Assembly (NCBI GenBank): GCA_023231475.1
Contig: JALJEE010000763.1
Span: forward strand, 1-64,000
Source of the DNA: Seison nebaliae
Lineage: Eukaryota
Length of the DNA stretch: 64,000 nt
Reading direction: 5' to 3'
A program made the position numbers and the translations under genes. Numbering within the stretch: position 1 is the stretch's first letter; each line of letters begins with the position of its first letter. Shown here one piece after another: positions 1,644 to 62,300 of the stretch. Under the pieces are notes generated by a model that saw only the letters and a program-made list of their open reading frames with translations, ran no database searches and had not been told where the DNA came from.

Positions 1644-2903
1644 TTATTTCAAAATGTTTTCAATTGAAAATGAATGAGTAGTTGTTGTGGTCGGTTCTTT
1701 ATGTAAATTGTTTCCATTCTCTAAATTTGATAATTGAGTACCGTTTGGAAACGTTATCCCATCTGAATTTATGTCATGTTCATCTAAGTTGTTGTGATTG
1801 GGTACTTTGTTTGATCCGTTTAAATGGTTATACAACATATATGTCAAATATAGTTGGAAATTTTCTTTTAAAGCAAAATCTACTTTATTACTTTGAACTC
1901 CAGATATTTTCTCATCTTTCAATAATTTCTTATTTGGTTTTTCTGATCTTCCTGGTCGCTTAAATTCTCCATTACAATATTGTGATTTGCTGTAAGAAGT
2001 ACGAACACGTCGATTGGCAAACCATTTTTTAACTTGTTTCGGCTTGAGATCAGTTTCCTTAGCTAACGAATTTGTTACATCTTCATTCGGATATGGATAT
2101 GACTGATTCTCATCATACCATTTTCGTAAGATTCTTATAGCATCAGGATCAAGAAATCTCGATTTATTTTTTTTGTTTGAAAATCGATTATCATTTCCAT
2201 TATCACTTGTTCGATTATGTTCGCGTAAAATTTGAGAGTTATCATTGAAACTGTTGTTTTCATTTGAGGAAATTGATGAGGTGAAAATTTTCTGATTCAA
2301 CAATGATTCGTTCGATACTAGTGATGAATTTAACGTTCTATTTATTTGGTTGTTATTAAGAATTTGATTATTCGTATTAGATGTAAATGTTTCATTCTCT
2401 AACAATTTCTGTTGCTGTTGCAAAAGTACTATTTTGAGCAAATGATTTGAAAGATCAGTTCGATTATTACGACTCAATTTACTAGGAGAATCGATTTCAA
2501 ATGAAAATTTTCTCTTACAATTAGTATCTTGCTGATCATCTAAGGAAAGAAAAACGAAAAATTATTATAATTACTTATTTGGGTAATAATTTAAAAATAC
2601 TAACAGAGATATCCAGAATCGCATAATCCATATTTATTTTCGAAATTTATGTTTTCCTTATGAAAACTGCCATGCGACTAAAGATAATAATTATAAAATT
2701 TTTGAAATTATTTAAGCAAAATTAACATCATCAATTGATCGATTATCTTCATCATTTGATTGTACACCGCTGGTATTGCTAGAAAGACTGGCATTCTCAC
2801 TACGGGTCGACTTGTCGCTATTCTCATCAAGAGAGTTATTTGATGATTCTTTCGAATGATTCAAGTGCATCATTGATTGATTAGGTTCATCAATAAGTTT
2901 CAT
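1644..2903 (-). CDS. TALE-class homeodomain transcription factor (3 exons)
   Basis: Homeodomain RFLDPDAIRILRKWYDENQSYPYPNEDV...QVKKWFANRRVR has the TALE PYP loop. Inferred exons 2903-2727, 2677-2605 and 2539-1644 join in frame across GTT..AG introns 2726-2678 and 2604-2540. C-terminus is FSIENILK. Confidence 0.88.
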
Positions 2904-5900
2904 TTTGAAATCTGATAAAGAATACACTAAAAGAAAATCAATAAAATTTTGAGAATGTTCTAAAATAAAAGAATATAAAACGAGAATTATAAATTTTCTT
3001 AGAATATTATCTGACAATTTATACGGGAAATAAATGATCATAACAAATTCTAATAACTATCAAGAGCTGAACAGTTAGAGATGGTGAAATTAGGATTTAC
3101 AAAACAGATTTTCAGCTTGAAAAACAATGCGATAGTTATAGAAAGATAACTGAATAGTATAATCCTTACATGAGATTCACAGTATGCTATAAACCATTCG
3201 ATGGCAAGGTGAGATAACGGAAATTATTCATTCATTAGGTTATTTGAAAATAATTTATCCTCTTAAATTCGAATGATCAAAGACCATATTTGCTTAACAC
3301 GACGATAATCATTCAATTAAGAATGACAAATTCCTTCCTGTAGCTCGAACGAACGTTAAAGGAAATTCTTGTACTGAATCAATGATAAAAAGAAAAAGAC
3401 GATACTTTCATGGAATACTTTTCTTATTTTTATATTATTTTATTGTGGAACGTGGAACGAAATATATCGAGTGCTATATCGTTAATTCAATTCCAATGCT
3501 TAATGAGTAGATGAGACTGATTGCATTAAAATTTATAAATTCCTCCTCATAATCAATATAAAATAATCATTTATTAGCAAGTAATAAGATTGGGAATTTT
3601 GAGTAAACACAACACTGTTACTAATCACATACTCAGTTACCTAGTAATGTTGAGAATGAACTTTCCAGAAATATTTCCAGACCTAAATTAAACATCCTAA
3701 ATGTTAAATTAATATCGCACATAATTGTGAGCTATCAATCTGGGTAGCTCGTTTAACTAGTCTCGCGAACTAACTCGCAACAACTAACAAATGGAAACAT
3801 TCATTTAAACATTGAACTTTAACTAAAAACCAACCAGGTCTTAATGTTTTTTTTCAAATAAACGAAAATTTATTATATTCTTCTTATATATCAATTTTGG
3901 AAAATCTTGTATTTATGAACGAAAATCTTCACCACTTTTACACTCATTAGAAATGTAATTGAGATGGACTTTCAAAAGATTTCTAACGGCAGAATTCACA
4001 GATCTGTTCCGCTATTTGATGAAGAAACGAAGACTCGAAAGTATTCTATCTGCACTATAAGGATTTTTGAAAATATCACAATTTATTTGATTAAATTGGA
4101 AGAATTCATGATAATCAAAGAAGCGAAGAACTGGAAAGTATGAAAAAAATGAGAAACCGGAAAATTTTGAGTTAAGAAAAAAAGTTATGTGGTATATTCA
4201 ATATTTCTTATTTAGATATTTATACGGAAATTAAGGTATGGAGACCGAAATAATTATACTTTTATGTCGCATACTTCTGACCGAGTAGAAAGTTTTCAAA
4301 ACTGTTAAATTACTTCATCGAATTATGAAACAAGGTAGTGTGTTCCAAACAATTGTTTCAATTTGGCTACTCGATGTTGAAGAGTTTTGAATCGTCCAAT
4401 TTATCGAAGAAACATGAGAAATAATAGAATGATGCTAAGGAAAGATCTCAATTTGCAAGAAATATTGAGTCAGACGACCAAACTGTTTTGGAGAATATAA
4501 TACGGAAATATTCATAAAAAATGGATATATACGAACGAATGTACACTAAAAAACTTTCATAATTGACAATTTCTTCTCTGGTTGTCGATGGAGCGTAAGA
4601 TAATGATACATATTTAGTTAGATCATCAAATTTGCCTAATGAGCGCTCAAAATAAATTCAACGAATGAAACGAAACAAAGAAAAATAGTATTGAATCCCC
4701 AAAGACTAGCTCGTTGATTAGGTTCCTCTTTCGAGCTCGATGTTTTAGTAGGAAAGAGTTCGATAATTATGATGGTGGTAGTGGTGATCGCTTTGTTTTC
4801 TTTTTTCATATTTACTTGTCAATGGATCTTTCAGATGGATCTTATGCTGTGATCATAAAGAAAGAAGATCCATTCTTCGCTTTTCAAACGATACGATTTC
4901 CTCTTACCCACCGAATCAATAAGAACGTCTCACGTCCATATGAAAGTAAAATAAAAAGCGACTGACACATTAAGTTACACCCAGAAATATCAATGTAGAG
5001 TGTAGCGATAAAAGATCCGATGGGTAGTAAATATCATAAAGTTCGTTCAGATACCTTGCTACTTTCGTTCGTCTAAATGGATAGGTATTAAGGAACAAAA
5101 TTAAATAAACTATTGTTCGTAGAGAAGAGATCTAAAAATATTGATTTGAACGAATCGATGATATCTTTCTCGCAGTTAGTGGTAATAGATTCATCAACAA
5201 CTCTGATAAACGAATCAATCAGAAATTTGTCACAGCCAATCGATTTCAAGCATAATCAAGATATAATTCTCGCTTAATCGGATGAACAAAAACGGATACT
5301 TTAGTCTATCAAATATTGTTATACATCTTCCTCTTAAAAGTTTTTAAATTTTTCATCATTTAAAAATAGTATTAAAAATTCCGGGGATGCTTTTGCAGAA
5401 GAACATTTTCTGTTTTTCTTCTTCGGATCAACTTAACATCATTAGTCATATTTAGTTAATTAAAAATGGATATTATTCAGTTTCAATTGGGTTTCAGATT
5501 TATCATTCTCGTTATCAACATAATTTATTAAATTAAAATGACTTCTATACAAACAAGTTCGTTCATTATGTCATTGTTCAACATTTTGGTTTCAACGTTT
5601 CAAATTAAACTAATAAATTAAAGAATCGGTTAATCAAATAATCAAGTAATGAGATCACAACAGTATAACCAATCATGACAGAGGATAAGAAGAGAACAAA
5701 AGTTATTTAAATTAGCATTTCAGTTTCTTGTTATTAACCAGTTTTACTACTTATGGGAAGTTATGATTCCAATATTTTCATGTTATCAGTTTTCAATTAA
5801 AAATCGTTTACAATATTATTTTAGGGTGTGCATCAGAATTTGCAGACATATGATATTCCTCGATAGAAAAACATCGTCCATATGGAAAAACATTGTATAA

Positions 5901-7061: not shown

Positions 7062-9080
7062 ATGACAACTGCTGGTAGCAAACGGAAGCTCTTTCGAGAT
7101 CAAGGAAGACAAACTAGTTTTGAAGATATTCGAACTCCTACAATTGATCATTTCGTTTCGACCGTAACTCAAACTGACCGTCAACAAATAGTGAAGAAAT
7201 CATGTCATCGATCATCAACTATGCCATTGCTACATCATATTACCACTAATAATAATCGAATAACATCGGATAATATGGAAATTTCGAGATTTAAGTTAAG
7301 GAAAGGTGAAATTCGAGTTTCTCCCACTACAATCGATGAAGATTTACCGTTATTTAGAAAACAAAATTTGCTCCAAACACAATACGATTCTGTTATTGAC
7401 GAGAGTTTTTCTTTTGATCAAAGTTTTTCTTTCCAACAATCAATTGAACATCACTCCCAATATAATAAACGACCGATGACTTTAAATGAAGAAGAACTTA
7501 GTTTAGGCTATTCATCAATGGACAGATCAATCGAAAAATATCCATCGATTAATGATGCAATTGATACAAGTGGACAGAACAGTGAAAACAACAATGAGAA
7601 ATATGGGGAATTGGAGAAAGAGTTTCTTACTCATTTGAAATTCGATGAAAGTTCTCAGAAGGATCAGGCATTCTCCTATCATCATACTCCAAAGGAAGCC
7701 TTGACAAGTTCATTAAATTTTCCTAATTTCAATTTATCGGAAATTCGATCGATCATTGAATTTTCATTAAAAAATTTTCTTTGCAACAACTTTTATCGGA
7801 TATCCTTTGTCATCGATAGAAATGACGAATGATTATTGTTTTCTAATGAACTTTTCCTTTCTTCAAATATATACTCACCAATTCTGTTTCTTATTTTTCT
7901 TTAAAAACCAAAAGAATCAATGTCAACACAACAGTATAATCTAGGCGACTTAATCCAATTTCCACATCTCCCCAATTTATTATGTTATATTTATCGTCAA
8001 TTGGAAGCACTTGGTTAGACAATAAATATTTTTAGATTTATTCTGATATTTTTAGATGAGAGTAGAGATAAACAAATTGCTAAATTTGTTTATGCAATCA
8101 CAAAATTTCAACTGAAATTACAACAACACTTGACTGGTCATCTGAAAGATCAGTTTAAGAATATTAAGTATGAGAATTGTTTCGAATTTTATCATTATCT
8201 CACAACTGTCTTATTAATTGAGGAAGAGGTTGATTTCACTCATAATATCATACCGACCGATTTAACAAATTCGAAATATTTACTAAATGAACTCTCAATC
8301 GGTCAATGGTCGACATTGCTCCATCTTCTTTATGATACAGTTGGAAACAGTTAGTAGATCGACATGTCTTCATTACTTCTAAATCGATAATATAATTGAC
8401 AGTTTGTCATGCAAATCATCCTCCATATCAATTAACAAATCAGTTATCGATGAACAGATCGGAAGAGAGATGTGACATTAATCAATTAATTAATTCATTC
8501 GTCCATACCAAAGATCAAAATTTCCTTATAATTCGATTAGGATTCGAAATGAATGAGTTTCCTATCATACCGTATACCAATCCTACTACATCGGTTCCAT
8601 CAGCACCAACTACACCGACCAGATATTTACCCTATAATTTTTATTCAGTCCAATATTTGAATTTGACAAATACGACATCGGGTTTGTTTAATAGAATAAT
8701 TTATTGAAATACTCTTAAATTTATCCATTTTTATTTAACCAAAAGGACCAATACAGTTATGGCAATTTTTATTAAGTTTACTAATGAACATTAATCATCA
8801 AAATATTATTTGCTGGACATGTAATGAATGGGAATTTAAGCTGCGTAATCCGGACGAAGTTGCACGATTGTGGGGTAGAAGAAAAAACAAACCAAAAATG
8901 AATTATGAAAAATTATCACGGGGTTTACGATATTATTACGATAAACATATCATTACTAAAACATCGGGTAAAAGATATGTCTACAAATATGAGTGTGATT
9001 TATCTCTTATTCTACAAAAGACACCGGAACAGCTGTTTTCTTTATTAAATTGCAAACCATTAACCGAAGATGATGAATAA
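7062..9080 (+). CDS. ETS-domain transcription factor, ETS1/ETS2/pointed type (multi-exon; 5' structure approximate)
   Basis: Splicing 8682-8745 restores [11 protein letters not shown], followed by [51 protein letters not shown] and an ETS1-like tail ([14 protein letters not shown]). ORFs at 8130 and 8396 link in frame through short introns. The link to ORF 7062-7832 is likely, but I could not resolve its junction. Confidence 0.85.
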
Positions 9081-11533: not shown

Positions 11534-14500
11534 ATGACAAATTTTTCTCGAAATGTTAAACTTTGTTGTTGGAAGAATTGGATATGTATTCGAAGACATG
11601 TTTTTCCGTTCATCGTCGAATTATTACTACCTATTATTATACCGGTTGCCATCATGGTTTTCGTCCGATATGAGATACCGGCCGAAAGTTTTACAAATAC
11701 AACTTCCTGGGAATCAATTAATCCTAATGGTGGGAGATTATTTTTACATAACGGATGTATTGCATATACTCCTGTCTCAACCAATAATGACAAATTAATG
11801 GGACGATTAGGAAAAGTTCTCCAATTGACAATTGTTCCTTTTAAGAATGAAGTGGAGATGGAGAGAGCAGCATTAAATTGGGAAAAGGAGAGATGGTATG
11901 GAGGAATCGTTTTCATGAGTGATATAAAGGATGAAGAAATCGTCTATTATAAAATACGGATGCCAAATCGATTGCGAGTCATAACTTATGGAGATGCTCA
12001 ATGGAAAACGAATATGATGCACGTTCGGAAAATTATCTCATTAAAACCGAGAGATATAACAGATAAGACTGGAGGACCTCCAAATTATTGGGAGGAAGGA
12101 TTCATTAAATTACAATGGGCAATTGACAATGAATTAACTGGATCGACAATAGAATTAGATGAATTACAAAGAATGACTTATCCACCGTTCAATGCGGATA
12201 AGATCGCTAATTTATTATCAAATCAATTACCATTTATCTTCACTCTCAGTTACATGTTCATTGTGATATTTGCAACACGATTGATTACGATGGAGAAAGA
12301 ATCAGGAGTAAGAGAATTAATGAAATTACATGGCCTTACTCGAACACAACAATGGATAGCATGGTCTATTCGTTTGATAAGTTTAATGATAATTTCTTGT
12401 ATTATTATTACAATTTTTTTTAAAGTTTTTTTCTTTTTTTCTCTTCTTTCATAAATTAATATATTCTTAATTAAATGTAGATTAAAATACCTGGACAAGA
12501 TAGTACGTTTGAAGCAACTGAAATTCTCCGATTTAGTTCTGGCAGTTGTTTCTTTGTCCTTATCTTCCTCCATTCACTTCTCTCCATCACTTTCATCTTA
12601 TTGTTGGGAGCTATCTTTAACAAAGGTTATGCTGGAGCACTTGGCAGTGCAATCATTTGGTTTCTCACGTATGTGCCCTATACATTCATTCGAGGAAGGA
12701 AATTGCCATTAATTGCACGATTCTTTATTTCATTTCTTCCTAATATGCCAATATCATTTGGATCAGAATTATTAAGTCAATTCGAAGGACGTTCAGAAGG
12801 ATTACATTGGTCAAATATTACTAAAGATTATTTGGAATCATATCCCTTCATCTACATTTTTCTCTTTATGATATTCGATTTCTTCTTTTATCTACTTCTC
12901 GCCATTTATATCGATGATGTGAATCCTGGAGAGTTTGGGGTACCAAAATCATGGTATTATCCGTTAACGGTTTCTACATTTCTTCCAAGAAATAACATAA
13001 ATTTCATTTTAAACAAAACTTTAGTGTTGCTACCATTCTTGTAAAAAGAATAAATATGAATATGTTACCGATCCATATGTTACACAAATTACATCAGAAA
13101 GTGAATCGAATGTTACATCGAACGCTAATATGTTTGAAACGAATTCTATCACAAACAAAGAGGTAATCGTAGATATTATCGATCTGAGAAAGGTGTTTCG
13201 TGGACGGAATGGTCAGAAAAAAATTGCTGTAGATAATTTAAATATGAAAGTTTATGAGAATGAAATAACTGCTTTTCTTGGTCATAACGGTGCTGGAAAG
13301 AGTACGACGATTAATATCTTAACTGGAATTATGAAAGCAACATCAGGATCGATAATTTTCAATTCGACAGATATCGTGAAATATCCGAATGAAATTCGAA
13401 ATTCTATTGGACTGTGTCAACAGAAAAATATTCTTTTCGATTATATGACAGTTGATGAACATCTCTATTTTTTCGCACGTCTCAAAAATGCTCGAGATGT
13501 TGAAGAAGAGAAAGAGAAATATTTAGGAGAATTGGGATTGGAAGAGAAACATTCAGCTCAATCGAGAACATTATCAGGTGGTCAAAAAAGACGATTGTGT
13601 ATTGGAATCGCTTTCTGTGGTAATTCGTCGTTAGTGATTTTAGATGAACCGACAGCTGGTGTTGATCCTTCAGCTCGTCGTGAAATTTGGAATATTCTCC
13701 GATCAAATAAAACGGGAAGAACAATTTTATTGACAACTCACTTTATGGACGAAGCTGATTTACTCGGTGATCGAATTGGAATTATGGTAGATGGAAGATT
13801 ACAATGTTTCGGTTCCTCTATGTTCCTCAAATCTCGATATGGATTAGGATATCGATTAACTTGTTCGTTAAAAGATAAGAATAATGTTGGAGAAGAAATG
13901 TCGAAACAAGTGATAGAATGGTTGAGAATTGAAGGTGGAATGAAAGAATCATCGATAATAACAGCAATCGGAAATGAAATGTCTTTTCGATTACCAAAAG
14001 AAGGTTCATTCGACGGTCGATTAAGTGCAATGTTGAGATTGTTAGATAAGAAAAAAGAAGAATTCTTTATCGATAAATGTGGATTATCTATAACGACATT
14101 AGAAGAAGTTTTCCTTCGAGCAGTAAAAAGTAAATCAAAAGTAGAAAATGTGAAACATTATCAAGAAAGTAATAGTAATGATAATGATGATGGAGTTAAT
14201 GTTTCTTCACAATTAATTGACGAATATGTAAAGAAAGATTATCGTGTCTTATATGGAATGGCGAGAAAGAAACAACAGACGAGAGGTTTATTTCAGAAAA
14301 TTTATTATGGAAATATTAGACGATGGTGGTTCGCTATTATTCAAATATTAATACCTGTCTTCTTCACCGTCATGGCGATTGTTTCGACAAAACTTATCAA
14401 ATCTAGAACTAAAGAAATTTCTTTGTTAATCGGACCTGGAACGTATAACAAACAAATATTTCCTTATCAATTTATAGAAGATTTTTCTAATGAAACCAAA

Positions 14501-16969
14501 TCGAACGTCAAAGATTGTATAGAGAAAACTTTATCTCAAATTGCAGATAGTGACGGAATTCCATCAAAGCATTTGATGGCACATAATATTGAAGATGCAT
14601 TTCCCGATAATTCGCCATTTAAAAAATGTGGAAATGCCAAAGATTTCACGGATTACGTTCTTTGTTTTGGTAACGCATTTGGAACTTACCAATATATTGA
14701 AAATCATATTATCGGAATGACAATTGATAAGAAGGATGACAAGTTAATGGTGAGAGGATTATTTCAAGATTTCTTTTATCATTCTGCATCTTATTCGTGG
14801 AATATCGTCCAAAATTTCCGTCATAATTGGTTAGAAGGAAATGGAACGTTAATACGTGTCTATAATCATCCATTACCATTAACAGTGGATGATCGAAAAG
14901 ATAAGCGAAGTCTTGTCATGGAAACAATTGGGAGTTTCCTTGTTGCCACTAATCTTCTTATGGGATTCGCCTTCCTCTTTGCTTCATTCACTGCCTATAT
15001 CGTAAATGAAAAGAATTCGAAAGTAAAACATCTTCAATATATTTCTGGAATTGGATCGTTCTTCTATTGGGGAACGCACATGATATGGAATCTACTTCAA
15101 TATCTTTTCATTATCATATTAGTCGTTGTCCTTGTAAAAGTTGGAGATATTCGATCATTCTCTGAAACGATCTGTTAATATTTCTTTTCAATATAAATTC
15201 TCTAATTAATTCTCTATTTTCATCATTTTTAGCACGTTCGATGGAGATTTTCCTTCTACTCTTTTTATATGGACCGGGAGAATTGTGTCTCATGTATATC
15301 TTATGTCAAGTTTTTAAGAAATCTGCCACTTCTGTTGCGTTTCTTACCGTCTTCAATCTTCTCAGTGGTATCATTCCTGTAACTATCGTTTACATCGTCC
15401 AATTAGTTGACGACACGGGCAACATTTCGAATTATTTAAATTTGGTCTTTATGGTTCTCTTTCCTAGTCACGCTTTTGGTATGGCTCTATTGAATTATGG
15501 AGTTTTATATTCTCAAAAGATCTTATGTGAATTCTGTTTATTCTTCTATTTCTTATTATTTCCTTAATTCATTTTCTATTTTCAGTACCAATATTACCCG
15601 TTTGTTCAATTACTTATTTGTCATTAAATAAGAAAGCGATTGGAAGAAATCTAATAGTTTTGGCAGCAGATTCACTTTTTTATTTCTTATTACTCTTTGC
15701 TATTGAATCGGATATTCTTAATCGTTTTTCTCAATTCCTTTTGCGTCAATGTCGTCCTTCCAATAATCAAATTAATACTGTAGTTAATTTAGTTTTATTC
15801 TTTTGTATTTATATCTTTCTGACTAAATAGGAAGGTGATGAAGATGTGAGGAAGATGAGAGATAAAATATTAGATATCGATTTTTATGAATATGATGATC
15901 TACCACCAATTGTCGTCAAAGGGTTGTCGAAGGAATTCAAACGGAAAATAATTGCTGTACATCCCTTATATTTCCAATGTGAATATGGAGAATGTTTCGG
16001 TCTATTAGGAGCCAATGGAGCTGGAAAAACAACAACTTTTGATATGATGACAGGAATTCTCTATCCGACACGTGGAACAGCTTTCATTGTATCGGACGAT
16101 ATTAGGAAGAATTTGAAAAATGTTCAAAGGAACATTGGTTACTGTCCCCAGTTTGATGCACTTTGTGAAATGATGACAGGTAAAGAACTCTTGACTTTTT
16201 ATGGACGATTAAGAGGAATAGCTAATGAAGATCTATCGACTTATACGAATTTATTATTGAGAATGTTCAATATAGAACAATATTCTGATGTTATTGCTAC
16301 AAAATATAGGTTTACCATTTTGTGGAAATTTGAAATTTATTTCATTAAAATAATAGTGGTGGAAATAAAAGAAAATTATCCACAGCTATTTCATTAGTGG
16401 GTAATTCTAAAATTCTGTTTTTGGACGAACCAACAACTGGAATGGATGTGGCTGCTAGACGATATCTTTGGACTGTCATCAACAAACTGAGAAACACACA
16501 AGAACATACTTTAATTCTCACATCGCATTCAATGGAAGAATGTGAAGCATTGTGTACAACTGCAGCCATTATGATTAATGGACAATTCAAGTTGAAATTT
16601 ATTTTCTTAAAAAAAATTAATATTTCATTTATCAGATGTCTTAATTCGATTCAAAATCTTAAAAGTATTTATGGTGAAGGAGTTACTATATCCGTCAAAG
16701 TAGCTGATGGTGAAAATTTAAGTATTTTAGAAGAAAATCTTAATGCGAAATTCGGAAGTGCAAATGTCATATGTCTAAATCGATGCGATAAAATCGGACA
16801 ATATCAAATCAAAACAATTGACATATCGTTATCGTCAATGGCGGAGATGTTCGATTACATGAGCGAAAATAAAGATCGATTAAATATTAAAGATTTTTAC
16901 GTAAACCAAACTACACTCGAACAAATATTTAATGTCTTTGCTCAAGAGCAAAAACCAATAAATGAATGA
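11534..16969 (+). CDS. Full-length ABC transporter, subfamily A (ABCA3-like), 8 exons
   Basis: Layout is TMD-NBD-TMD-NBD. NBD1 has GHNGAGKST, LSGGQKRRL, LDEPTAGVD and LTTHFMDEAD. NBD2 has GANGAGKTT, YSGGNKRKL (restored by intron 16310-16356), LDEPTTGMD and LTSHSMEECE. TTLEEVF and TTLEQIF follow the two NBDs. Seven short introns join the ORFs in frame. Confidence 0.95.
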
Positions 16970-18839: not shown

Positions 18840-20408
18840 TTAAACTTTTTTCTTTATCGTTTTATTTCTCCGTCTTATCCATTCATCTTTCCACATGAAA
18901 AAATTACATTTGGCTTTTATATCATCAGGTCTTCCTTCCGGTTTTCGACAAACATAAAATTTCCTGTTTATATTTTGAGAATTTTGTTTAATTACTGTTC
19001 GCTCAAGACAATGTTCTTTATGTTTCCAACATTTTGGTGCAGTCACATCAATAACGTCATCGCGAACTTTCCTTTTCGAAGTTTCCCCAATTTGTTGTTC
19101 CTTTTTTGAATCATTTTTCGGTAAGACGTTAAATAAAGTGGAAATCTTTTGTTGTTCCAATAAACGTCTTCTCATTCCAGATGGAATAGTATTTGATGAA
19201 CGCAATTTAATATTAAAAGTTGCCATCACCGGCACATGATCACTACCTGAATGATCACTTAAAATTTCTGATTGAATCACATATTCTTCCAATGATCGAC
19301 TACAGAAAATATAATCAATTCGTGAACCATAATTCGTTTCATATGCTCTCGTTTTCTGATTCCAACAAGTATAAACATCTTTCTTCTTCGGATGGAGATG
19401 ACGAAAAGTGTCAATTAAAATATTTTCTATTTTATTCTGCGATAAAATCGTTTCATCGTGAAAAGAATCATTTGAATAATCTTCAAAAACGAGTCGATTT
19501 ATCCAATTTTGAAATCGATCGAATTTCATTTCATTCTATAAATTCAGTTTTAATAATTAATTTAATAAATTTAAAGATAATAATAATAATAAAATATATA
19601 AATAAGAAGAAATAACTTCATTAAAAATGGAAAATTTCGCACTATCATTATATCGTCGTGAGATATTGAAATCACCACAAATAATGAAGAATTGTTGTTG
19701 TTTGATCAATTCTTCTAAATAGCATTGCAGTGCAAAAAAGAATAAAGTTTTATAATTTAATCGATCATTCGATATTCTTGTGATAAATTCATCTTTTCCA
19801 CAATTCTTGTCTATTCGAACATATTTGTTCGATTCGTCATTATCTTCGGCCGAATACATCGGACAATATACATTGATAACATGAAGACATTCGAATGTTC
19901 TCTCATAATTTTCATCCGTTGGAGATGGTGAACGTGGAAATCGATTTGAATATAATTCAAAAATATCTTTTTCAATGATTTTTTCGTGTTCTTTTCTTTT
20001 TTTATCCATAAGATATTTTCCAGCAATAAATCTCCCTTCTGACAACAATTGTTCTTTGATCTCACATATCAACAATTCAACATTTTCACATTTATCTTTA
20101 TAATATTCACGTATTCTTTCTTCAAAATGTTCAGTTAAGAAATTTGTTTGAATGCTGATGGGAACGAGTCTTTCATGAGAGAATAATGCAGTTCCTGAAT
20201 ATCCTTTCTTCCTCTCCGAACAGTTGAAAGACGATAAATAATTTTTTCTTGTAACCAAATCAGAATGCAAAGTCGATTTAGATAATTTTGTTTCTTGTAA
20301 AAGAATTATGTCATAACCATTTCTACCAAATAGTTCTTGATCATTCTCCATCGATCTCCAACTATTCACATTCCAACTCATTATACTCAAACCATTTTTC
20401 AAATTCAT
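18840..20408 (-). CDS. APEX2: AP endonuclease 2 (EEP domain, PIP box, zf-GRF), 2 exons
   Basis: Motifs SWNVNS, LQETK, GYSGTA, NVYCP, GDFN, NYGSRIDY and GSDHVPV are present, plus a PIP-like QQKISTLF and C-terminal zf-GRF PKCWKH...RKFYVCRKP...CNFFMW. One intron inferred at 19616-19536. Confidence 0.93.
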
Positions 20409-21314: not shown

Positions 21315-23377
21315 ATGCGAATGAACAACCCGAATCAGATAAAGCCGTCCGTCTCCTCTCAACTCATTTCTAGTTCGGGTACAACTGTTGGACAGGATTC
21401 TCGAAAACATCTTCGTGTTCGTCAGACAATGACCTCTTCCGTCAGCAATCGATCACAGAAAAAGATTAATGGTGTCCCTTATTCACAATCGACAACGAAC
21501 ATTCCGGGCAATGACAGTTCAACAATGAAATCGAGAATTCATTTAAATGTTTCATCTCGTAAGAATGCGGGTCACAACATGGCGAATAAAGTGGTAAAGA
21601 ATGAGAAAGATTTCAATTCTATTTATCCATATACTGGAAAGAAAACAACAGAGATAGAAAATATTGTTACTCATCTCAAGAGTAAACAAATCAGATTAAC
21701 AACGAATAAACCGCCAGAGAACGAACTCCGTCGGCTAATTCAAGAACGATTGAAAGTGATGGAAGAGACTCCGAGTACGAGAGTGATACCTGAAACAAGA
21801 GAACCACTCATCAATTTCCATGATCGATATATTGTGGGAAGTGTTATCGGTTCGGGCACTTATGGGTTCGTTTCTACTTTTTCCATCACTCTTTTCCATA
21901 TCTCAATTTTTTAGTCAAGTGATGAATGGAATTCATGTGCCATCAAAAGAGAAAGTTGCAATTAAAAAGATCTTAATGAAATCGGAACAAGATGGAGTTG
22001 ATATTCTCTATTTCCTTTTCATAAATTTATATTTTTATCATTTTCTTTTTAGTTTCCACGAACGACTTTGAGAGAGATAAAAATTCTCAAATCTTGTCGT
22101 CATGATAATTTAGTTTCATTGAGAGAGTTCTGCTTTAGTATCGGTTAGTTATATATTTTTCCTTTTATCGACAATTTCTTCTTTTTTTCCAGAAAAGGAT
22201 TCGATTGAGTTCTATCTCATTATGGATCTAGCTGATCATGATCTCGCTGGTCTCATTAATCAGTTCAAATCAAAATTTACCGTAGTCATGAAATTGGCAA
22301 TTTTAAAACAACTTTTAATCGGTTTGATTTTTTTTCCTTATTTCCGTAATGTCGATAATAATGATGATAGCATTGGAATATATTCATTTCAATCATATTT
22401 ATCATCGTGATCTGAAAACGGCAAATATTCTCATCAAATCCAATGGGAGACTTCTACTGGCTGATTTCGGATTAGCAAGAATTGTGAAAAATGTCGAAAC
22501 GTTGACGAATGGTGTCGTCACTTTGTGGTATCGACCTCCTGAATTACTTTACGGATGTATGAAATATACGGATAAGATAGATATGTGGGGTGTTGGTTGT
22601 ATCGGGGCTGAAATGTGGCATGGTAGTGCCATAATGAGAGGATCATCAATCATCGAACAATTGAAACATATTCATCATTCGTGTGAGAAGATAAAGAAAG
22701 ACAATTGGCCGAAAATTGACCAGATGCCAAATTATAAGAAGTTAAATACTCAATGGAAAGATGAGAGATTGCCTAATTTCATTGACTGGAAGAAACGTTT
22801 CGAGAATAAAGAAATTTTAAGCTTCATTAAGAAATGTTTGACGATTGATCCGGATAAACGATTATCAGCTAAAGAAGCATTAGAAGAGACGATATTCACG
22901 AATATCGGAGAGAAACATATGAAGTCATTGGGAACGATGTTACAAAGTCTCCAAACCAATTGCTTCGAATTAGTACCGGAAAAAAGATTGAAACGGAAAA
23001 ATTCTCATGATCGAAATGATGCGAAAAGAAAACATCAACATAATCGTCAGAATGATATGAATAATCCTCATCATCGCCATCATCATCATCATCACCATTT
23101 AAATAACAACAATAATAAAAATAAATATCTCAATGATAATGGAGGAAAATTTTCAAATTCAAAAATTTTAGGCAATCATCTTAACTCTTCAAATTCATCT
23201 GAGAAAATGTCAGATATTCAACCGATTCCATCAAATTATCATATACACGAAGACATGGGCGGCATTACCTCATCTTCCAATTCCGGTGTTACTCATCCGA
23301 CCAAACATAATTCCAATACGAACATTAATATTTTCAATGCGAATTTCGAAAAGAATTTAGAAAATTTATTGTTTTAA
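21315..23377 (+). CDS. CDK9-like transcriptional cyclin-dependent kinase, 5 exons
   Basis: After removing four short introns the protein reads IGSGTYGQV, VAIKK, DGFPRTTLREIKIL, HDLAGL, HRDLKTANIL, DFGLAR and TNGVVTLWYRPPELL. The first in-frame ATG after the upstream stop is at 21315. CDK9 versus CDK12/13 placement needs a phylogeny. Confidence 0.85.
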
Positions 23378-24549
23378 ATCCTTCAACTTCTTAATTCGTG
23401 TACCTGATGTGCACTCTCAATCACATCTCATTTCACAACGTCCAAATTTAGGTAAATAATTTTTTTTTAAAATTCCACTTCATGTTCTTTATGATCTAGT
23501 GTTCGATCTCTCCTAAAATTGGTATAATTCCGGTGAAGATTTATGTTTTTCCATTAAAATGAAGTGCAATTTGTAGAGATAATTTTGTATTTTATGATGA
23601 ATCATTCTCCTCCTTCTTTTTCTTTATGATTCTCTGGAGACGAATTGATCATTGGCGAATATTGAATTGAATGAGAGTTTCCTTTGAATTTTCGTGGAGA
23701 AAAATATTCTTTTTCCAATTCCTTCATAAACCAAAAATATTACATCTATTCAATCACCAAAAGCAAAAATATATTACCTGTTTTAAAAAGAACGAATTCT
23801 TCCAAATTCAAAATCCTGAAAATTCTCTTTCTCAACATTTCCTCTTTATTTCAAGTTCCATCTTTTGAAATATGGAAAAATTACATTGATTTCCTTTATG
23901 CTAGTTATATATTTTTTGAATTTTCATCCAAAATATTTCTGATATTTTCTTTTCTTTGTTCCTTCAACTTGTAATTTCCTCTTATTATAACTGAATTAGA
24001 ACCGATAACAGAAAATCTCATGTTTTTGCTGTTTTTTTTGGAAGATGAAATAATGATAAATATAAATGGGTTTACCTTCAATTTTCCCTATAAAATATTT
24101 CTCGTCTAATTTATTTTTAATGGGTTTAAATATCTAATAATTTTCATATAAAAATACAGTTTGAAAAAAATTTGGACAATTAGCGAAACTAAATTTTTAA
24201 AATAAAAAATTCTAAACAATCTCTTTTTTTTGTATTTTTTCTTTTCTCTTATGTTTACTTAATTAATTGTTCCTTGCTAGTACACGACTTCTTAAGGCGG
24301 GTCATTCATAAGAGGAAAGAAGAATATGATCATTCATCGTTTATCTAGTCGTTACACATTCGTAGTTTTCATTCGTAAATAACGAGGAAAAGGGAGGTGG
24401 AATAAAGTAAAATGTTTATTTATATGACAATGATGATGTGTGTTTATAACTTTCCACGACTGCATCTATTTTTGAAATATTTCATTGAAATTGAATTGAA
24501 ATAGAAATATTGTATTCGTTTTATACAAATTCCACTAGTTATACATGAA

Positions 24550-49141: not shown

Positions 49142-52100
49142 ATGCTCTTCATGAATATTCCAGCGTCCTTGAATAGTCCGAAAGGGAACGACGTGAAAAG
49201 CCAAACATCGGACGTTTCATCAATCGAATCTGTTTCATCATCGTTATCTTCTTCCTCCACGTTGTCGACGGATTTGTCAGGTGGTGGTGTCGAAGATCAG
49301 AATACCAAATTTTTTATGACGAACAATCTCAATTCTTCAAATTCTCAACAACATATAACCAACAACAATAACAACAATATTTCAAATATTAATTTCAATA
49401 ATACTAGGCAGCTTTTCCAACATAATTCGACATCATCACAATCGATTGGCTCTCCAAATTTCCTCCAATATTCTTCAACTCCACAAACAAAAAGAACGGA
49501 AACAACTACTGCCAATTCTCAAAATAACAACCACCAATTGTTAGGTGGGACTGAGAGTAAATCGATTGAATCTGATATACGATCGAATTATGATGCATTA
49601 TCCGCTCTCATCTCACAAACATATTCTCAATATAACATGACAATCACTCATCCTTACTATCAATTATATGAGAATGCTGCTGCAACTAATCTACTATTCA
49701 ACAATTTAATGAATCTCTCAACTAATAACAACAATTCTGTCACCAACACCAATAACAATAACTGCAACACCGTCAATCAAATTCAACAACAATCGAATTC
49801 TGTAAATCAACAACCGTATTTGGATAATTATACTATGATCGCATTAGCTGCTCAACAAGCTGCATTGGTTAATCCACAGAATTTGACGAATATTCCCTTG
49901 TTTGACAGACAACCACATACAATAGACAAATTACCACAACCACTTGGCAGTGAAGTATCACCACAAGAGAAACCACCATTATTTTCGAGTAAGGCGAATG
50001 TTTGTAATGTATGTTCGGAACCAGCTAGTGGATTACATTGTGGTGCAGTGACTTGTGAAGCGTGCAAAGTTTCTTTTCTTCTTTATTGAGAATTATTCTA
50101 TTAATTTTGATTATAGAAATTCTTTTTGAGAAGTGCAAATGGTGAAGCGGAGAAATATAAATGTAATCGATTAGGAAATTGTTCGATAACTCGTTTCACT
50201 CGAACTCTATGTCAATTCTGTCGATATCAGAAATGTCTCACCGTTGGTATGAAATTGAATGGTTAATTTTTATTTTCCTTCATTTTTCAATATAATGAAT
50301 TTTCTCATTTTTTAGCTGATATTCGAACACCCAGTGTTACTGAAGTGTTCAAGAAGATTCCATGTACGGTGTGTAAAGCACCAGCATCTGGAATGCATTT
50401 CGGTTCGATCACATGTGAAGGATGTAAAGTTTCATTCTTTTTATTTTCTCATTTTTCTTTCAACATTTTTATAAAAGGGATTCTTCCGTCGATGTATTAA
50501 GGAACCAAATCCTGAATTTAAATATAAATGTCTCAATAATCGTCAATGTGTTATTAGTAGTTCTACTAGAAATGTTTGTCGATCATGCCGATTCCGTCGA
50601 TGTATCGGTGTTGGAATGTCAAGTAAAGCGAGTCGAATTGGACGACAATCGAATTTATTCAAATTTCAAGTGATGGAAATGCAAGCAAATGGATCGAATG
50701 ATCCCCAAGAAATTATTCGATATATGACGGAAGTTGGACGGAATAAAGCTGCACGAATGGCAAGTAAACGTAATCCGGTTCCTGGTATTTGGTCTGCCAT
50801 AAGTTCCGGTCTTCGCTTATCCGCATCATCGTCTTCAACGTCTGTTGGTCAAACGACGACCGATGAAAATAAAAAAGAAAAAAAGGAAATAGGAAAAGTA
50901 AAAAATTTGGTAAAGAAAGAATATAAATCGAGCAACATCTCAAACAATCACATTAACGACAACAACATGAAGCTTACTAATGAAACAAATCAATTTATAC
51001 ATGAGATTGGCGGAGAGATGTTGGAAAGTCCGATAATGAATCGGCAACAAAACCTCAATTTAATGGCATCGGAGAATAACAGAAATATTCCACAACAATT
51101 CGATTATCCGATGAGAAAATTAGAGAATTATGATCAACGATCTACATCAACCTTTCCATCATTGTCTAAAGAAGTGATACAAAATAAGACTAATGACCAC
51201 AATCTCAGTAATCACCTTCTACATAACTCATTCTCCAATTCCAACTTGTCGTCAACTATTCATTCAAATGAACTCTTACCTCCAAAGAATTCCAACTGTG
51301 TTGGTTAGTCTCATTATTTTCTATTATTTTGTTTTTATTGTAATTTTGTAATTTGTAATTCTTACTTTATATTTTTAATGATCATATCTCATATACGTAT
51401 GTATTGCTTTATACGACAGACTGTATTACTATTACAGATAATTTTTATGTTTCATTTTTATAATATTCTAATTCTTGTGAAAAACATTTTTTCTTTTTTT
51501 CATTAATTGTACTTATAAATTTTTTCTTAAACCTCTCAAATAGATCCGATGAAATTGTTGAATATTATGAAGAATAAGGAGCAGAATCAACAATTATTTC
51601 AACCACCATATTCATCATCACAATCAAATATGAATATGAAGAGACGAAGTATTGACCAGGTGCCAGGAGAAACATTGAAACGACTGTGTACGAATCAACC
51701 GAGATTATCAGTTCCTTATAATTTTTCTGATTCTAAACTGATGGTCAAAGCGCAACAACAATATGTCAATCACTCGATGATAAGTGGTCAGGAGAACTTA
51801 GTGAAAGAATATGAGGATATTATTAATCAAGTTCAACAAAGTTTTCTTCGACAACAACAAGTTTCCTTCGATTATTTCCAATCGTCTTTATTGAAATTTT
51901 CTTTTATAATTCTTTCTATAAAAGTTATTGAACAACTTTTATGAATATAATGATTGTACATCATCGGTTGCTGATATTTGTGCGGAAAAATTAACGAGTT
52001 ATGGGAAATTATGTGTCCGTTTCGCCGCCTCTTTACCAGGTAACTTTTATTTTTCTCTTATTTGGATGAATGTTTAAATTGAATTCTTTAGATTTCTCCT

Positions 52101-53505
52101 CCCTACCAAACAAAGATAAAATTCTTTTGATCAAAAAGGCTGTCCATGGATTCATTGTTCTACTTCAAATTAATTATAATCCTTATCAACAATCGGAAAT
52201 CGATGATAAAGATGATGATTCATGGAATTATTTCAATGTCAATAAAAAAGTCTTCGATATGATATGCGAAGAATTCCCAACTTATGGTCGAATTCATAAG
52301 AAGATGCGTGACGTACGTAAAATAATTTTGAAATCGAAAATCGATTTCAGTGAATTATCTCTATTATCAGCATTACTCATCTTCAATCTCAGTTAGTTGT
52401 TCTTCAATTAAAATTCATTCTTCATTTGATTCTTGTAGTGGAAACACCGAATTTGATAGATGTGGAAAGTGTAAATCGATGTCATGCTAATCATCTGAAA
52501 ACATTGTATTATTATATTGAAAGTTTGATGATTGTTTTCATTTCCTTCATTTATGCTCATTATTATTCATTTTCTTTAGAATGTAAGAAAACGTTCAATG
52601 ACCGATGGTACACCATCATTCATATCTCGAAATATTTGAATGAAATTAATTCTTGTTTTATGGAAACGGAAAATATTAGAAATGAAATGAGTTCTCTCAC
52701 AATTAACAACGGGAATAATAATTCAAGAGAATTCAGTAACAGTATGAATTCGAACGACGATGTGATCAGTTGTCTACAACTTCGAAATGGTGAAGATAAT
52801 TCGGAGAATAATTCTTATTCTATCGATTCTTATGAATATTCGAATGAGTTCAATTCTCATGAAACACATCCATTTCACAAAGACAACCAATTCCATCAAC
52901 TCGACATTTTTGGTGATGGTCGGACGAATGTCGATCTCTGTTCTTCTTTCCCTAATCAATCTAATTTTGATCTGTCCACACCTTTCTCCTCATTTTCCAA
53001 TGTATCTCCTTCTGCAACTGCTGCCTGCTCTACTGCCAAATCAACGACATCATCTTCGACATTTGGACAAGATCAAAACTTCTGGTCAAATATGCCATTC
53101 ACATCGATGAATTCTGATTTAATGGATTCATCTGTCTCGTCATCAACAATCAATATGAATAATGTTCAAATGCAAAGAGAAGTTGAAGATGATATATGTC
53201 AAAAAGGGACGATTGATAAGGAAAAATTAAAACTTTTAGAATTATTGAAAACACTCTACATTCGTCTTAAAGAAAAATCGGAACATGTTAATATGTGGAA
53301 TAAAGAGTATGCTCCTTGGGAATCATCATCATCTTCTTCTTCTTCTTCTTCCTCTTCCTCTTCCTCCTCCTCTTCTTCATTATCATCATCATCTGTATCA
53401 TCTACTCTTCCGGTGACCACATCAAATACGATGGACAATGTCATCGACTCCTCTTCAATTGGCATCGATTCAACGAACAAGATTCGCGAATTATTTACAA
53501 TTTAA
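49142..53505 (+). CDS. Nuclear receptor with two tandem DNA-binding domains (2DBD-NR) and a ligand-binding domain, 9 exons
   Basis: DBD1 is CNVCSEPASGLHCGAVTCEACK/KFFLRS...CQFCRYQKCLTVGM. DBD2 is CTVCKAPASGMHFGSITCEGCK/GFFRRC...CRSCRFRRCIGVGM. The LBD signature is FAASLP/DFSSLPNKDKILLIK. Introns include 50069-50116, 50262-50315, 50429-50477, 51304-51543, 51861-51924 and 52040-52091. Confidence 0.93.
53323..53394 (+). repeat. Mixed TCN trinucleotide repeat encoding a poly-Ser tract in the nuclear receptor C-terminus
   Basis: A run of tca/tct/tcc codons translates as SSSSSSSSSSSSSSSSSSSLSSSS. Confidence 0.9.

Positions 53506-54269: not shown

Positions 54270-54273
<4 letters not shown>

Positions 54274-54302
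<29 letters not shown>
54274..54302. repeat. (AT)n microsatellite
   Basis: Perfect alternating AT run of about 29 nt. Confidence 0.95.
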
Positions 54303-54305
<3 letters not shown>

Positions 54306-54646
54306 CGCGAAATGAAACGTCTCATTTACTTTTTCACCTGACATAAGTGTAAAGGCAAATCCATCGGATTGGAAAGACAGGCAACATTTAACGTAAATAT
54401 CTCTATTGCATAACATAATGCTACACTGAATATCTATAGAATTATTTTCGTTTTCATCTTTTTCTTTTATTTCTTTACAGTGTATAGAAGAGGAATTGTC
54501 ACATATCATGGTTAATTGTTTCGAATTTGATTCATGATATTGACTGATTCCAATTCTTTTCATCATTTCCTCGTTTTTATTTGTTTGTTAATTTAATTAA
54601 ATTTCAACGTAACAAAAATATACAAATGATGTGATTTAAACAATTT

Positions 54647-56119
54647 TCAGACATATGATAATTTTGGAAATAGGGTCAATGAAAAAGACAAAGATATTTG
54701 TTGCAGGATTAGAATTAGAACATTTCTTATTGTTTCGTTAAGACGTCCATTAGAATTGCCATCGATTGATATTCCTCGACAGTTCGACTCCAAAATAGTT
54801 GATCATCTTTAAAAAAATATTTAAAAGAGTTTTAAAAAATGAAATTAAACTTGACAAATTGAATGAAGTTAGAAAATTATGAAGAAATGATTGTTCGATT
54901 GGACAATCAATAAGGAAACTCATAAAAATATGTTTCCCATTGTAAATTTGTTTGGAGAATTCTAATTGGCATTCCGTCAAATGCGTCGGCGCCACGTTCA
55001 ATCTTTTCACTTGTTGTAGTTGTAATTGATTTAATTCTTTCCCGTCGATCATCGAATGATAATGGGAAATGATTTTATAAGCGATGCAATCAGCATCTTG
55101 AGCATTGTGGTAAATGAGAACTATCAGACCCTAAAATAAAAGAAACATAATAAAAATTGAAATAATGAAAAGAAAAACGATTAACATTTGTGAAAATGGG
55201 TTCTGGATAAACAAAAGGAATTAATTGACTGATATTAGTACTGGTAAACCGAATCGCCTGTAATTCGTCTGGTATCTCATCACATTTGTTAGTCAAACGT
55301 TCTGCCTATCAATCGGAAAAATCATCGGAAATTCGATAAAGAAATAAATGCAAAATTAAGAACTTCGGTGGCAAAAGAATGTTGTCCTTCTTCTGGTGTA
55401 AAATTATGAATTTGATTGAAAAGATTATGAAATGGGTCAATATCTGTCTTCTGTAAAATTTCTGATTTTCATTTTAAATGTAATTTTAGTAAATGGAAAA
55501 AAACCATCATATCCATCGAAATTCATTGTGAGACATTGAAATTTGATGTTATTACTCGATTCGATAATCGGTTTGGTGGTGCAAAGTAAATTGATTTGAC
55601 TATCTGAACAGTCTCTTGTTCTCAGTTGTTGGGTGGCAGCATAAAATTGACAATTATGACAATTACGAATAAATAGACTTCCTCGAACAGCAGCCAAAAC
55701 AATGATACAATTTGAACAATGATCAATTGTCATTTGTTGGACATCCTTCAGAATAAATATTCTGCTATTCTATTAGAAGAGATGAATATTTTCAAAAAAT
55801 TTTTCAAATTGAAATTAATAACTCTACAATCGATAATAGACAAAGGAGCAATCTCTTCTGATTTCAAACGAATAACAACATCATTCTCAATATTTTTCAT
55901 TAAATAGTCATCTGTACCAGTCGTATTGTTTTTATCCCTAAATCATAAAATTATTTTATAAGAACCATTCGAAGTGCTTATGAACCATGAATAAGTCGGT
56001 TTCTCTGTTGAAACAGCAATTTCGTGATTATTATTATTAGCATTGTCAGACGATTGGAAAATATAGAGATCTTGCCTCATTCTGCAACATGGCAGATGAC
56101 TTTTAAGAAAATTCCACAT
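54647..56119 (-). CDS. RP2: Protein XRP2 (ARL3 GAP; TBCC-like beta-helix plus NDPK-like domain), about 7 exons; 3' end approximate
   Basis: Spliced product reads KPTYSW/DK...DYLMKNI...IIDCR/NSRIFIL...MTIDHCSNCIIVLAAVRGSLFIRNCHNC...QQLRTRDC...CTTKPIIESS...DPFHNLFNQIHNFTP. The YSWD N-terminal motif and C-terminal extension fit RP2 rather than TBCC. Confidence 0.87.
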
Positions 56120-59237: not shown

Positions 59238-59308
59238 ATGTGATCCTCTCTCATTTATTTCTATCACACATTTTCATTTTTAAAGAAGAATTTTTTGTTC
59301 TTTCTTTT

Positions 59309-62300
59309 TCATTTTGCACTTTTTTTTTGCTTATCATTACGTAATTTTGGAGTAGTTGTTGTTGTTGGGGCTGTTTTGCTGGTGCCGTTTGATTTAGATT
59401 TGGACTTCTGTAAAGACTTTCGTTTTTTCTCTTGTTCTTTTGTTATAAAAATTTCGATTAATTTCAATAAAATCTTTTTGAAATAAACTTTTTAAGAACG
59501 GAAGTCGACGTGCATTTTGGTTACATGCATCACTACTGTCACTCATCAAATGTTTCTTCCAAGATTCTTCTCCTTTCTCCGATAAGACTTTTTGACATAG
59601 TGGACATATCATGGAATTAGTTAGATCTTTCATTCGAACACCTGTCAATTCAAATCAAAAACTTATTAGGAGAGAAGAAGAAAAAAACATTTCTTTGAAT
59701 TCGTATGACTTGACATCTCCGATTTCTTGATACTCAAAGTACAATTTCGACATGTTTCAAATTCATTCTTTTTTTCACATTCTGTTCGTCGATGTTCGCT
59801 CAACGCTGTAATTTCTGTGATTTGTTTACATTCATCACATCGCATCATCAACGGACACGCCTCATAATAATGAAGATTTAGTGACTGACTATTTAAGATT
59901 TCACCGGTTTCTCCACAGAACACACAAGTACTGATGAGAAAGTGTAAAAAAATCAACATCGAATTCATCAAACAGGAACTTGTCAAGATTGAAATCTTTA
60001 TTCGATTGACCATCAGCCGATAATTCACCAATGCTCTTCTGACGGTGTTTAGAACGAGATGTTGGTGTTTGCATGTTTGTATTGCGACCACTATACAAAC
60101 TGAGACTTTTCACACTAGTCGTATCTGCTGGAACCTTCCCGTCGATTTGGTCAAATGCGTCGAATATATATCGATATTTGACATTCTTCCGAGCTGCATC
60201 ATCATCAGATGGTAAATGCTTTTTTATCGCTTTCCTTTGTGACTCGAATCGACGATAAATATCAATTATCATTTTAGATGAAAGTTCTCGAACATCACCC
60301 GTCGTACTTTCTACAGATGATGACAATAATTTCATAGTATTATCTATTGACATACCACTACAATATTAATCAAATATAATTTCCACACGATGATATTGTA
60401 CTAAAGAAAAAACTTTTTTTCATTTCCTAAAAGGTTTGTTAAGTTCTCTAAAATTTCTATTCTCGCTTTCGCTTGCTTGCTCGGAAGGTTGCTCTTGATA
60501 GGTTGTGTACATAATGATGGTACATAGCCTAAACTCTAAAGATAATGATGTAATTTGAAATTATTTAAAAATATAATTTAACTTGGACTTCTGGTAATAC
60601 GGTGAAATCTGAGATGAATTGCATGGAACAATTTCTAATCTTTTTATTCTAAAAAAAAAGAAGAAATAAAAAATTTGATTTAAATAGAAAATTAACATTA
60701 TTTCCTGAGTGATATAAAACTGATGGGAAAATTTTGTCAATTACGTTCATCTTTTCACTTTTATCGATTCTAAGATGGGATTAGTAATTAGATTAAGAAA
60801 ATAAAAACTTGAATTTCTTTGAAAAAGTTTTGTACAAATATTTCACCAATTTCAACGAACCATCAATAATCTGATGGAAAAAGAATATATAAAAGTATTT
60901 TCCATATTAAGAATATTCTTATAGAAAGCTAACGCTGTACACGTTATCTTTTAACGATTTAGCTAGAACCAAACCAGTTGCTCGAAACATCTCCTTTGCT
61001 GCTTCTTCGTTCTTATCGAACTCCATTACTTGCTTTGTTACGGCTTCAATGGACTCTTCTCGTTTCGTATGAAGTTTGGAATAAAGATGTAGTATCTACA
61101 AGAAATGAGATATTGAAAAAAATCAATTTTAATGTTTATTCGATTTTTGGTGTGGAATGTTAACGACAGGACGAGGAAATATTTCCATCATCGGAGAGGC
61201 TTCTCTGATCTCCTTCTCAGATAATTCGTTATCGTTAATCGATGAATCATCATTATTATTGTTATTATTGCCATTTTCATAATTCGTTAAACGTTCTTGT
61301 TCATATTCATTCAAATCTGTCATACTTTGTTGTCCATTCTCCTTCTTCAATAGTGCTGGAATAATGCGATCTTCATATCGTAAAGTTCCTCTGGAAATTT
61401 CGAATAAAAATAAGAAAAGAAATGGAAAAATGTGTGTGGTTTTCAAAATTAACTCTGGAATATTTCTAGAACTTTGTAATTGTTTTTCTTCACTTGAATT
61501 CTCTTTCTCCTCATCCACTTTCCTTCTCACATTATTATGTTCTCGTTGTGTAACGAAGAAACCGTCACTATCATCTAACTGCTTATCATATGAATTTATT
61601 AGACTAATTTCATCATTTCCAGACGTTCTCATTGGCATTTCTGTTTCATTGTTATTGTTTAAAGTATTTTTCATACGCATCATCAGAGTATGTGGCAATT
61701 CAACTAAATCGTGATATTGTAACTGTTCATAAGTAAGTGCACGATATTGATCTGCCTGCGTCTTTTTCATGAGAGCTTTATCGAAATCTTCTTTTTCAAT
61801 AGCTCTCTTCTTTTCGATTTCATATCGACTTAATCTTTCCCCAATCTGTTGCAATTCATTAATGGCTTTCTTTATTTTTTTTGCAAGAAAATAATTTTCT
61901 TTCGAAACAGCTTCTTTCTTCCTTAGATCGAGTGCACGAATAATTTCTGCGACTTCTGGATCTTGGTACATATCGAATGCCAAATCGTTCAGATCATAAT
62001 TGAAATCGGCTGTTGACTGTTCATAATTAATTGATTTAGTTAAGAAATTATCATCGATAATTGTGGAGGTTGAAGCCAAAGTGGAATTCATATAGTCGCC
62101 TAAAATCGAAATAGCCACCACTCCTACCTGATTGTATACATTGTAACGATTTGAATAGTTTTTATGGATAACTAATTTGATCATGAATCCTGTTGAATGC
62201 ATATGAATCGATTTCAGTTCTCTCGCTTCGTAATTCGTTCGTTGATTAGATGACAATTCTACATATCCCAATCGAGAATATCGTGCAGTTTTAGCCGTCT

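Follow-up and report, generated by a model that had tools for sequence, protein, structure and literature searches.

Can an animal change the letters that mark the start of its introns? The question is raised by a 64-kb window of DNA from Seison nebaliae, a marine rotifer of the Seisonidea (the whole stretch analysed here; GC content 25-33%), in which nearly every intron of the curated genes begins with GTT. Animal introns usually start with GTA or GTG, and few features of gene expression in animals are as conserved as the 5' splice-site code and the U1 5' end. Published cases of wholesale donor change concern mostly protists and fungi poor in introns, in which only a small number of sites had to co-evolve. 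The S. nebaliae genome is about 46 Mb in size with compact genes, and has 31.9% GC in one of two lineages (PMC8351084).

Thirteen recognisable genes were found in the window, and ten of them, on both strands, yielded a curated set of 50 introns, all junctions being predicted from DNA. The third intron base (+3) is T in 48 of these introns, A in two, and never G or C. Intron bodies contain 51% T, against which the donor bias is highly significant (binomial p=3e-12), and GTT makes up 41% of the GT words of the window and 35 of the 77 GT words within the curated introns. An initial annotation of this DNA had described near-universal GTT donors (48 of 49 introns), and this was borne out; the five junctions that it cited (8682, 16310, 21997, 50069 and 50429) all lie where it had placed them and are all GTT. 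Its further statements that GTAAG and GTGAG donors are absent, that G at +5 is merely occasional (13 of 50) and that the last exon base is often A rather than G (26 and 13 of 50, respectively) also hold in the curated set.

The introns are short (median 52.5 nt, range 39-245, 47 of 50 below 100 nt) and occur at about 1.8 per kb of coding sequence. All 50 have GT..AG ends, which were imposed by the parser; when three public proteins were mapped exactly onto the window, with the ends left free in part of the mapping, every resolved junction was compatible with GT..AG. The acceptor base at -3 is T in 31 introns, C in 12, A in 7 and G in none, and the bodies are T-rich. By their predicted GT..AG ends, T-rich body and YAG acceptor the Seison introns would belong to the major (U2) type. 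They do not fall in the canonical GTRAGT donor class, as only 2 of 50 carry a purine at +3 and an AG exon end is not enriched (2 of 50, 2.6 expected by chance). The U12-type donor motif, GTATCC or ATATCC, was not seen among the 27 hexamers observed, in a search confined to GT donors. No clear branch-point consensus emerged, CTRAY-type words being present in 5 of the 50 introns.

Since the junctions are predictions, the choice of donor could itself have leaned towards GTT, a caveat attached to the initial annotation that is largely refuted. A donor-blind parser, which scored codon usage, intron composition, length and acceptor and never positions +3 to +6, returned 53 introns with 48 GTT, 4 GTA and 1 GTG donors. 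Of the 50 donors it recovered 46 in the unaltered sequence, and 46, 45 and 44 after in silico replacement of +3 by A, G and C, respectively; this near-equal recovery indicates that it is blind to +3. In curating the 53 introns, two unsupported introns of a CLIC-like gene, both GTT, were removed, and five DNA polymerase beta introns (3 GTT, 1 GTG, 1 GTA) were exchanged for four placed on motifs, this gene having been mis-parsed. A GTA donor for intron 4 of CEP104 was rejected in favour of a homology-supported GTT that scored 17 bits better. Profile hidden Markov models (HMMs) were built from 30-45 non-Seison homologues each for the CDK, ABCA and CEP104 genes, and these profiles ranked a GTT as the best GT donor in 21 of 21 introns; in 17 of them no other type of donor came within 5 bits, and four were not pinned. 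In 17 of the 50 introns a single in-frame GT lies within 30 nt, and every one is GTT, while the 46 competing in-frame donors elsewhere comprise 15 GTT, 11 GTA, 11 GTC and 9 GTG. Taken as a union, the donors fixed independently by HMM or as sole GT are GTT in 30 of 30 cases. Judged on these predicted junctions, the GTT pattern is confirmed as a real feature of Seison DNA.

Public protein models agree with the window. The kinase exon has its best hit in SNEBB_003853 (CDK) of S. nebaliae, the exons of which are identical to the window, SNEBB_003850 matches an ABCA exon at 100%, and a public CEP104 protein of 902 aa maps exactly. Of the curated introns, 21 are contained in these three models; 20 of them are GTT and the remaining one is the GTA/GTT tandem. 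The tail of the CDK model adds a GTC, a GTT and a GTA donor. The models do not count as independent RNA evidence for the junctions. No RNA data set was listed for the stretch. Contigs from three sequencing runs over positions 44001-64000 contained no intron-skipping joints; they were DNA-like or gave no cover and are uninformative on splicing.

The genes, their GTT introns and two introns with GTA donors are as follows (coordinates within the window; a slash marks the exon-intron boundary).

1644..3041, minus strand, TALE-type homeobox gene (Pfam Homeobox_KN; 5' end of the model uncertain), introns 2726-2678 and 2604-2540, each donor being the sole in-frame GT
7062..9080, plus strand, ETS gene (Pfam Ets), introns 7708, 8014, 8350, 8682
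11534..16969, plus strand, ABCA transporter (SNEBB_003850), introns 12425, 12970, 15174, 15536, 16310, 16591, and a tandem GTA/GTT donor at 15780/15783
18840..20408, minus strand, exonuclease-III-type AP endonuclease with GRF zinc finger, intron 19616-19536
21315..23377, plus strand, CDK9-like kinase (SNEBB_003853), introns 21866, 21997, 22144, 22322
24550..27025, plus strand, NYN-domain (Zc3h12a-like) gene, introns 24581, 24881, 25011, 26860
27530..29132, plus strand, DNA polymerase beta, introns 27830, 28134, 28278 (these three hand-set on conserved motifs) and 28652
49142..53505, plus strand, nuclear receptor with two DNA-binding domains, introns 50069, 50262, 50429, 51304, 51861, 52392, 52523
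54727..56080, minus strand, TBCC-domain gene, presumably RP2-like, introns 55985, 55822, 55504, 55363, 55185, 54850
59309..62550, minus strand, CEP104, ten introns 61453, 61164, 60933, 60808, 60696, 60582, 60413, 59979, 59688, 59488
52040..52091, plus strand, exception intron in the nuclear receptor, donor CAG/GTAACT (matching the canonical consensus at 8 of 9 positions), supported by the parse
23452..23499, plus strand, candidate intron, donor TAG/GTAAAT, in the public CDK model only, downstream of the curated CDK stop and outside the curated 50

A comparison with related loci bears on when these donors arose. A Rotaria CDK9 query against metagenomes (6 of 64 parts) returned four loci, L001 to L004. 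Two were excluded, L001 with an intron-free CDK9 and L004 with an unrelated kinase. The two that were used, L002 and L003, are genomic and bdelloid-like, with segments 66-100% identical to Rotaria CDK9 and a GC content of 28-29%, and we infer that they are of bdelloid type. Their CDK9 introns, 49-65 nt long and located at eight positions, are GTA in 9 of 9 cases. Counted by position, GTT is found at 0 of 8 in the bdelloid-type loci and 48 of 50 in Seison (p=2e-8), the comparison covering two contigs and a single gene. From the Rotaria protein alone, the donor-blind aligner used on these loci also found the CDK introns of the window, all four with GTT. Two of these, 21866 and 22322, are identical in residue and phase to bdelloid-type GTA introns, and for 22144 a bdelloid-type intron of the same phase lies within one residue and is probably shared. 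AT-richness and short introns do not in themselves yield GTT, because the equally AT-rich bdelloid-type loci are all GTA, and because the GTT introns of Seison sit at bdelloid-type GTA positions, old introns were converted in place. The rewired donor code proposed at the outset is thereby supported as specific to the lineage relative to bdelloid-type loci, as located at ancestral positions and as going beyond base composition.

The excluded locus L001 (positions 1-2599) is intron-free and transcript-like, with three consecutive frames of which CDK9 is the middle one. Acceptor-like words stand just before the second and third start codons, and L002 and L003 have the same neighbours; this row of genes may be an operon with trans-splicing.

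Exceptions to GTT are few. The clearest is the GTA donor at 52040 in the nuclear receptor, which has an in-frame GTT 21 nt upstream; use of the latter would remove what we take to be the helix-3 motif of the ligand-binding domain. PDB and homologue searches made to pin this donor returned nothing useful. At the tandem pair of the ABCA gene either donor, GTA 15780 or GTT 15783, may be the one used. The curated 50 do not include three introns confined to the public CDK model. Of these, 23046-23171 (GTC) and 23288-23360 (GTT) are probably false calls because they are open frames with about 30% T, while the GTA intron at 23452 is plausibly real.

Beyond +3 the signal is degenerate on the intron side and recoded on the exon side. 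A is found at +4 in 21 of the 50 introns (p=0.04) and T in 19, T at +6 in 35 (p=0.005), and the 13 cases of +5G compare with a background of 5.8% (p=4e-6); positions +7 to +10 contain 58-62% T. The GTT donors comprise 26 different hexamers, the commonest being GTTAGT and GTTAAT with six each (0.4 expected for GTTAGT), whereas GTTTGT occurs once. Once background is corrected for, GTTAGT is the consensus and differs from the canonical GTAAGT at one position. The exon ends in AA in 21 of 50 cases, where phase-matched coding sequence would lead one to expect 6.9; none of 20,000 simulations reached this count. Among the 30 fixed donors there are 14 such cases (4.2 expected), and among exonic decoy GTTs 35 of 329 are preceded by AA. 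At -1 C and T are depleted and A exceeds expectation (18.0 expected, p=0.014), and the following exon tends to open with A (26 against 18.4 expected, p=0.02), with no excess of G. The two sides trade off. At least two of +4A, +5G and +6T are present in 2 of 21 AA/ donors but in 17 of the 27 other GTT donors (p=0.0003), and the same holds among the fixed donors (1 of 14 against 9 of 16, p=0.007). The donors thus form two anti-correlated classes, AA/GTTnnn and nn/GTTAGT-like, and the exon end is a second recoded signal, in which AA trades off against intronic +4A, +5G and +6T and which the initial annotation had not described.

What reads such a donor? In base pairing U takes A and G, G takes C and U, and A takes U alone, and because +3 is strictly T, with C and G absent, an A in U1 fits better than a partner that tolerates wobble; the absence of C among the 48 pyrimidines at +3 has p=1.5e-5 at intron composition. 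In the normal register nucleotide 6 of U1 would face +3, and an A there would pair solely with U, which suggests a U1 reading ACUAAC instead of canonical ACUUAC. We give close to an even chance to the reading that the GTT donors arise from a U1 5' end with A opposite +3, perhaps accompanied by a second change in U1 or U5. U6 would then continue to read +5G and +6T, the AA of the exon would be read by an altered U1 nucleotide 9 or by U5 loop 1, and short length and U-rich bodies would furnish the remaining information. One model places U5 loop 1 C39/C38 opposite both exon-end Gs (PMC8283771). The intronic positions other than +3 stay in the canonical register. In the comparison of true and decoy sites among GTT words only, the area under the receiver operating characteristic curve (AUC) was 0.76-0.77 for the normal register and 0.66-0.68 for the shifted one. 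A more far-reaching version is possible, if on the unlikely side: both sides of the junction would be recoded, either by two changes through which U1 reads AA/GUUAGU (approximately ACUAACUU replacing ACUUACCU) or by a C to U change in U5 loop 1 such that both exon ends prefer A, and the two-class architecture would be retained over thousands of old introns.

Several observations weigh against an altered U1. An Rfam scan of the window gave two sub-gathering matches and no spliceosomal small nuclear RNA (snRNA). Most lineages with atypical donors have retained a canonical U1, as in Giardia, Trichomonas, Micromonas and Thecamonas (10.1101/2022.06.08.495308), and where yeasts switched to +4U the U1 motif is invariant in 227 of 230 genomes while METTL16 and SNRNP27K track the switch (PMC10581693). 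The compensated U1 matches on average 5.4 of 9 donor positions, and duplex energies in free register separate true from decoy sites with an AUC of 0.49-0.56 under any version of U1. A canonical U1 in a shifted-plus-bulged register accounts for -1A and +3T, though not for the scarcity of +6G. Both clear GTA donors (52040 and 23452) carry an AG exon end, which suggests that sites of canonical type still work if their exon side is canonical. The tests on AA and on the two classes were chosen post hoc, on 50 introns of a single 64-kb window.

The explanations that keep the snRNAs canonical have to be weighed against this. U1 could pair shifted by one base towards the exon, reading A/GUU as AG/GU, possibly with a pseudouridine bulged out, and the cut would be fixed by U6 and U5. 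The shift sets A7 of U1 opposite +3 and U10 opposite -1, and so predicts the T at +3 (48 of 50) and the A at -1 (26 of 50) that were observed; a canonical U1 also separates true from decoy sites better when shifted (AUC 0.74-0.76) than in normal register (0.66-0.68), and shifted, bulged and asymmetric-loop registers have been demonstrated in human cells, where the shifted and bulged ones are minority classes (PMC4856993). A pure shift, however, predicts G at +6, which was found once among the 50 donors and once among the 26 with -1A, the G being found at +5 instead (13 of 50). Nor is -1A coupled to +4A (p=0.15) or +5A (p=0.55), and the C predicted at -2 is at background level (9 against 7.9) where A is enriched instead. 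We consider a shifted canonical U1 improbable. A rule set by proteins is somewhat less so, and still doubtful in our view: altered or lost U1C, LUC7, PRP8, SNRNP27K or METTL16, or a TIA1-like protein that binds U tracts, would make +3U obligatory and relax U1 pairing in short introns defined by their length, or the donor would be read by U6. The yeast +4 switch follows changes in proteins and not in snRNAs (PMC10581693), Seison assemblies lack about 35% of metazoan core genes (PMC8351084), the T enrichment at +7 to +10 fits such a rule, and +3U can pair with the G of an unchanged U6 ACAGA box, as proposed for Entamoeba (10.1101/2022.06.08.495308). A G partner in U6 would, on the other hand, admit C at +3, of which none was found, and relaxation by itself would lead to about 51% T at +3 where 96% was observed.

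Two further explanations do without any change in the reader of the donor. GTT might be a by-product of short AT- or T-rich introns or of the choice of donors by the annotator, given that intron bodies are half T, GTT is the most frequent GT word, four of the 21 homology-tested junctions were not pinned and the public CDK model includes GTC and GTA donors. The composition test, the uniform GTT of the fixed donors, the blindness of the parser to +3 and the uniform GTA of bdelloid-type loci with like GC content and intron length have largely refuted this, and we hold it to be very improbable. Equally hard to credit is a recent spread of introners whose end happens to be GTT. The lengths of the introns are alike, as such a spread would have it, but two of the four CDK introns share residue and phase with bdelloid-type introns and a third lies within one residue in the same phase, no shared sequence is seen by eye among the intron bodies, and the exon-side signal trades off against the intron-side one, which is how selected signals behave.

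Other features of the window stand beside the genes listed above. The nuclear receptor (49142-53505, plus strand) has two C4 zinc-finger DNA-binding domains in tandem together with a ligand-binding domain that is divergent, an architecture that we take to be of the 2DBD-NR kind from flatworms and some other invertebrates. Among the long frames listed for the roughly 15 kb upstream of it (34300-49000), none is recognisable as a gene. A divergent single-exon Argonaute with PAZ, Mid and Piwi domains lies at 56991-59237 on the plus strand. The AP endonuclease gene (18840-20408, minus strand) is arranged tail to tail with a single-exon WD40 gene, presumably RBBP5-like (17383-18810, plus strand), their ends 29 nt apart. 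The acceptor of the CLIC-like gene (32727-34212, plus strand) is in frame with a short ATG exon at 31380-31426 on the same strand, 1.3 kb upstream and with a GTT donor; a second ATG frame near 31576 stops at a GTGAGA word and is mismatched in phase to that acceptor. Both candidate donors were excluded from the counts.

The donor change in Seison concerns an animal with ordinary intron density, degenerate signals and introns common to other rotifers. It opens to testing how thousands of donors can follow once their reader has changed, and whether the code is set by U1, by U5/U6 or by proteins. In practical terms, this lineage will be misjudged by gene finders and splice-strength scores that were trained on GTRAGT.

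In literature searches, from which supplements were excluded and in which subscription papers were mostly outside reach, no report of GTT-type donors in Seison, rotifers or other animals was found. The main text of the Seison genome paper (PMC8351084), as far as accessible, is without the term snRNA, uses "splice" once, in an unrelated sense, and gives no donor consensus, and the accessible portions of PMC10599564, PMC11347168 and PMC10125929 contain nothing on GTT donors. Known systems each share a part of the pattern. Animal 5' splice sites fall into AG//GUNNN (U5-type) and NN//GURAG (U6-type) classes (PMC11732430), and as in Seison the exon-side and intron-side classes are anti-correlated; the letters differ, with AG where Seison has AA at the exon end and a purine where it has T at +3, and in Seison the two classes share a fixed +3. 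Human sites of the shifted and bulged kind (PMC4856993, which cites Roca and Krainer 2009) resemble Seison in A/GUU, +3U and -1A, but the shifted class is a minority and needs the +6G that Seison has in 1 of 50. The +4U donors of Saccharomycotina with METTL16 or SNRNP27K loss (PMC10581693) likewise represent a lineage-wide switch at one donor position, although there at +4 with U1 and U6 unchanged, whereas Seison has switched at +3 and is mixed at +4 (A 21, T 19). The closest parallel is Entamoeba, with near-universal GUUUGU(U) donors (88-90% GUUUGU) and a co-evolved U1 ACAAAC (Roy and Bowser, 10.1101/2022.06.08.495308), the sole +3U lineage with a reported U1 that we located in print, and one in which this U1 matches the donor. 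Entamoeba and Seison have GT..AG introns and near-universal +3U in common; Entamoeba is intron-poor and uses a strict hexamer with +4U, whereas Seison combines its higher intron density with a wide variety of GTT hexamers, A and T about equal at +4, a weak +5G and a recoded exon end.

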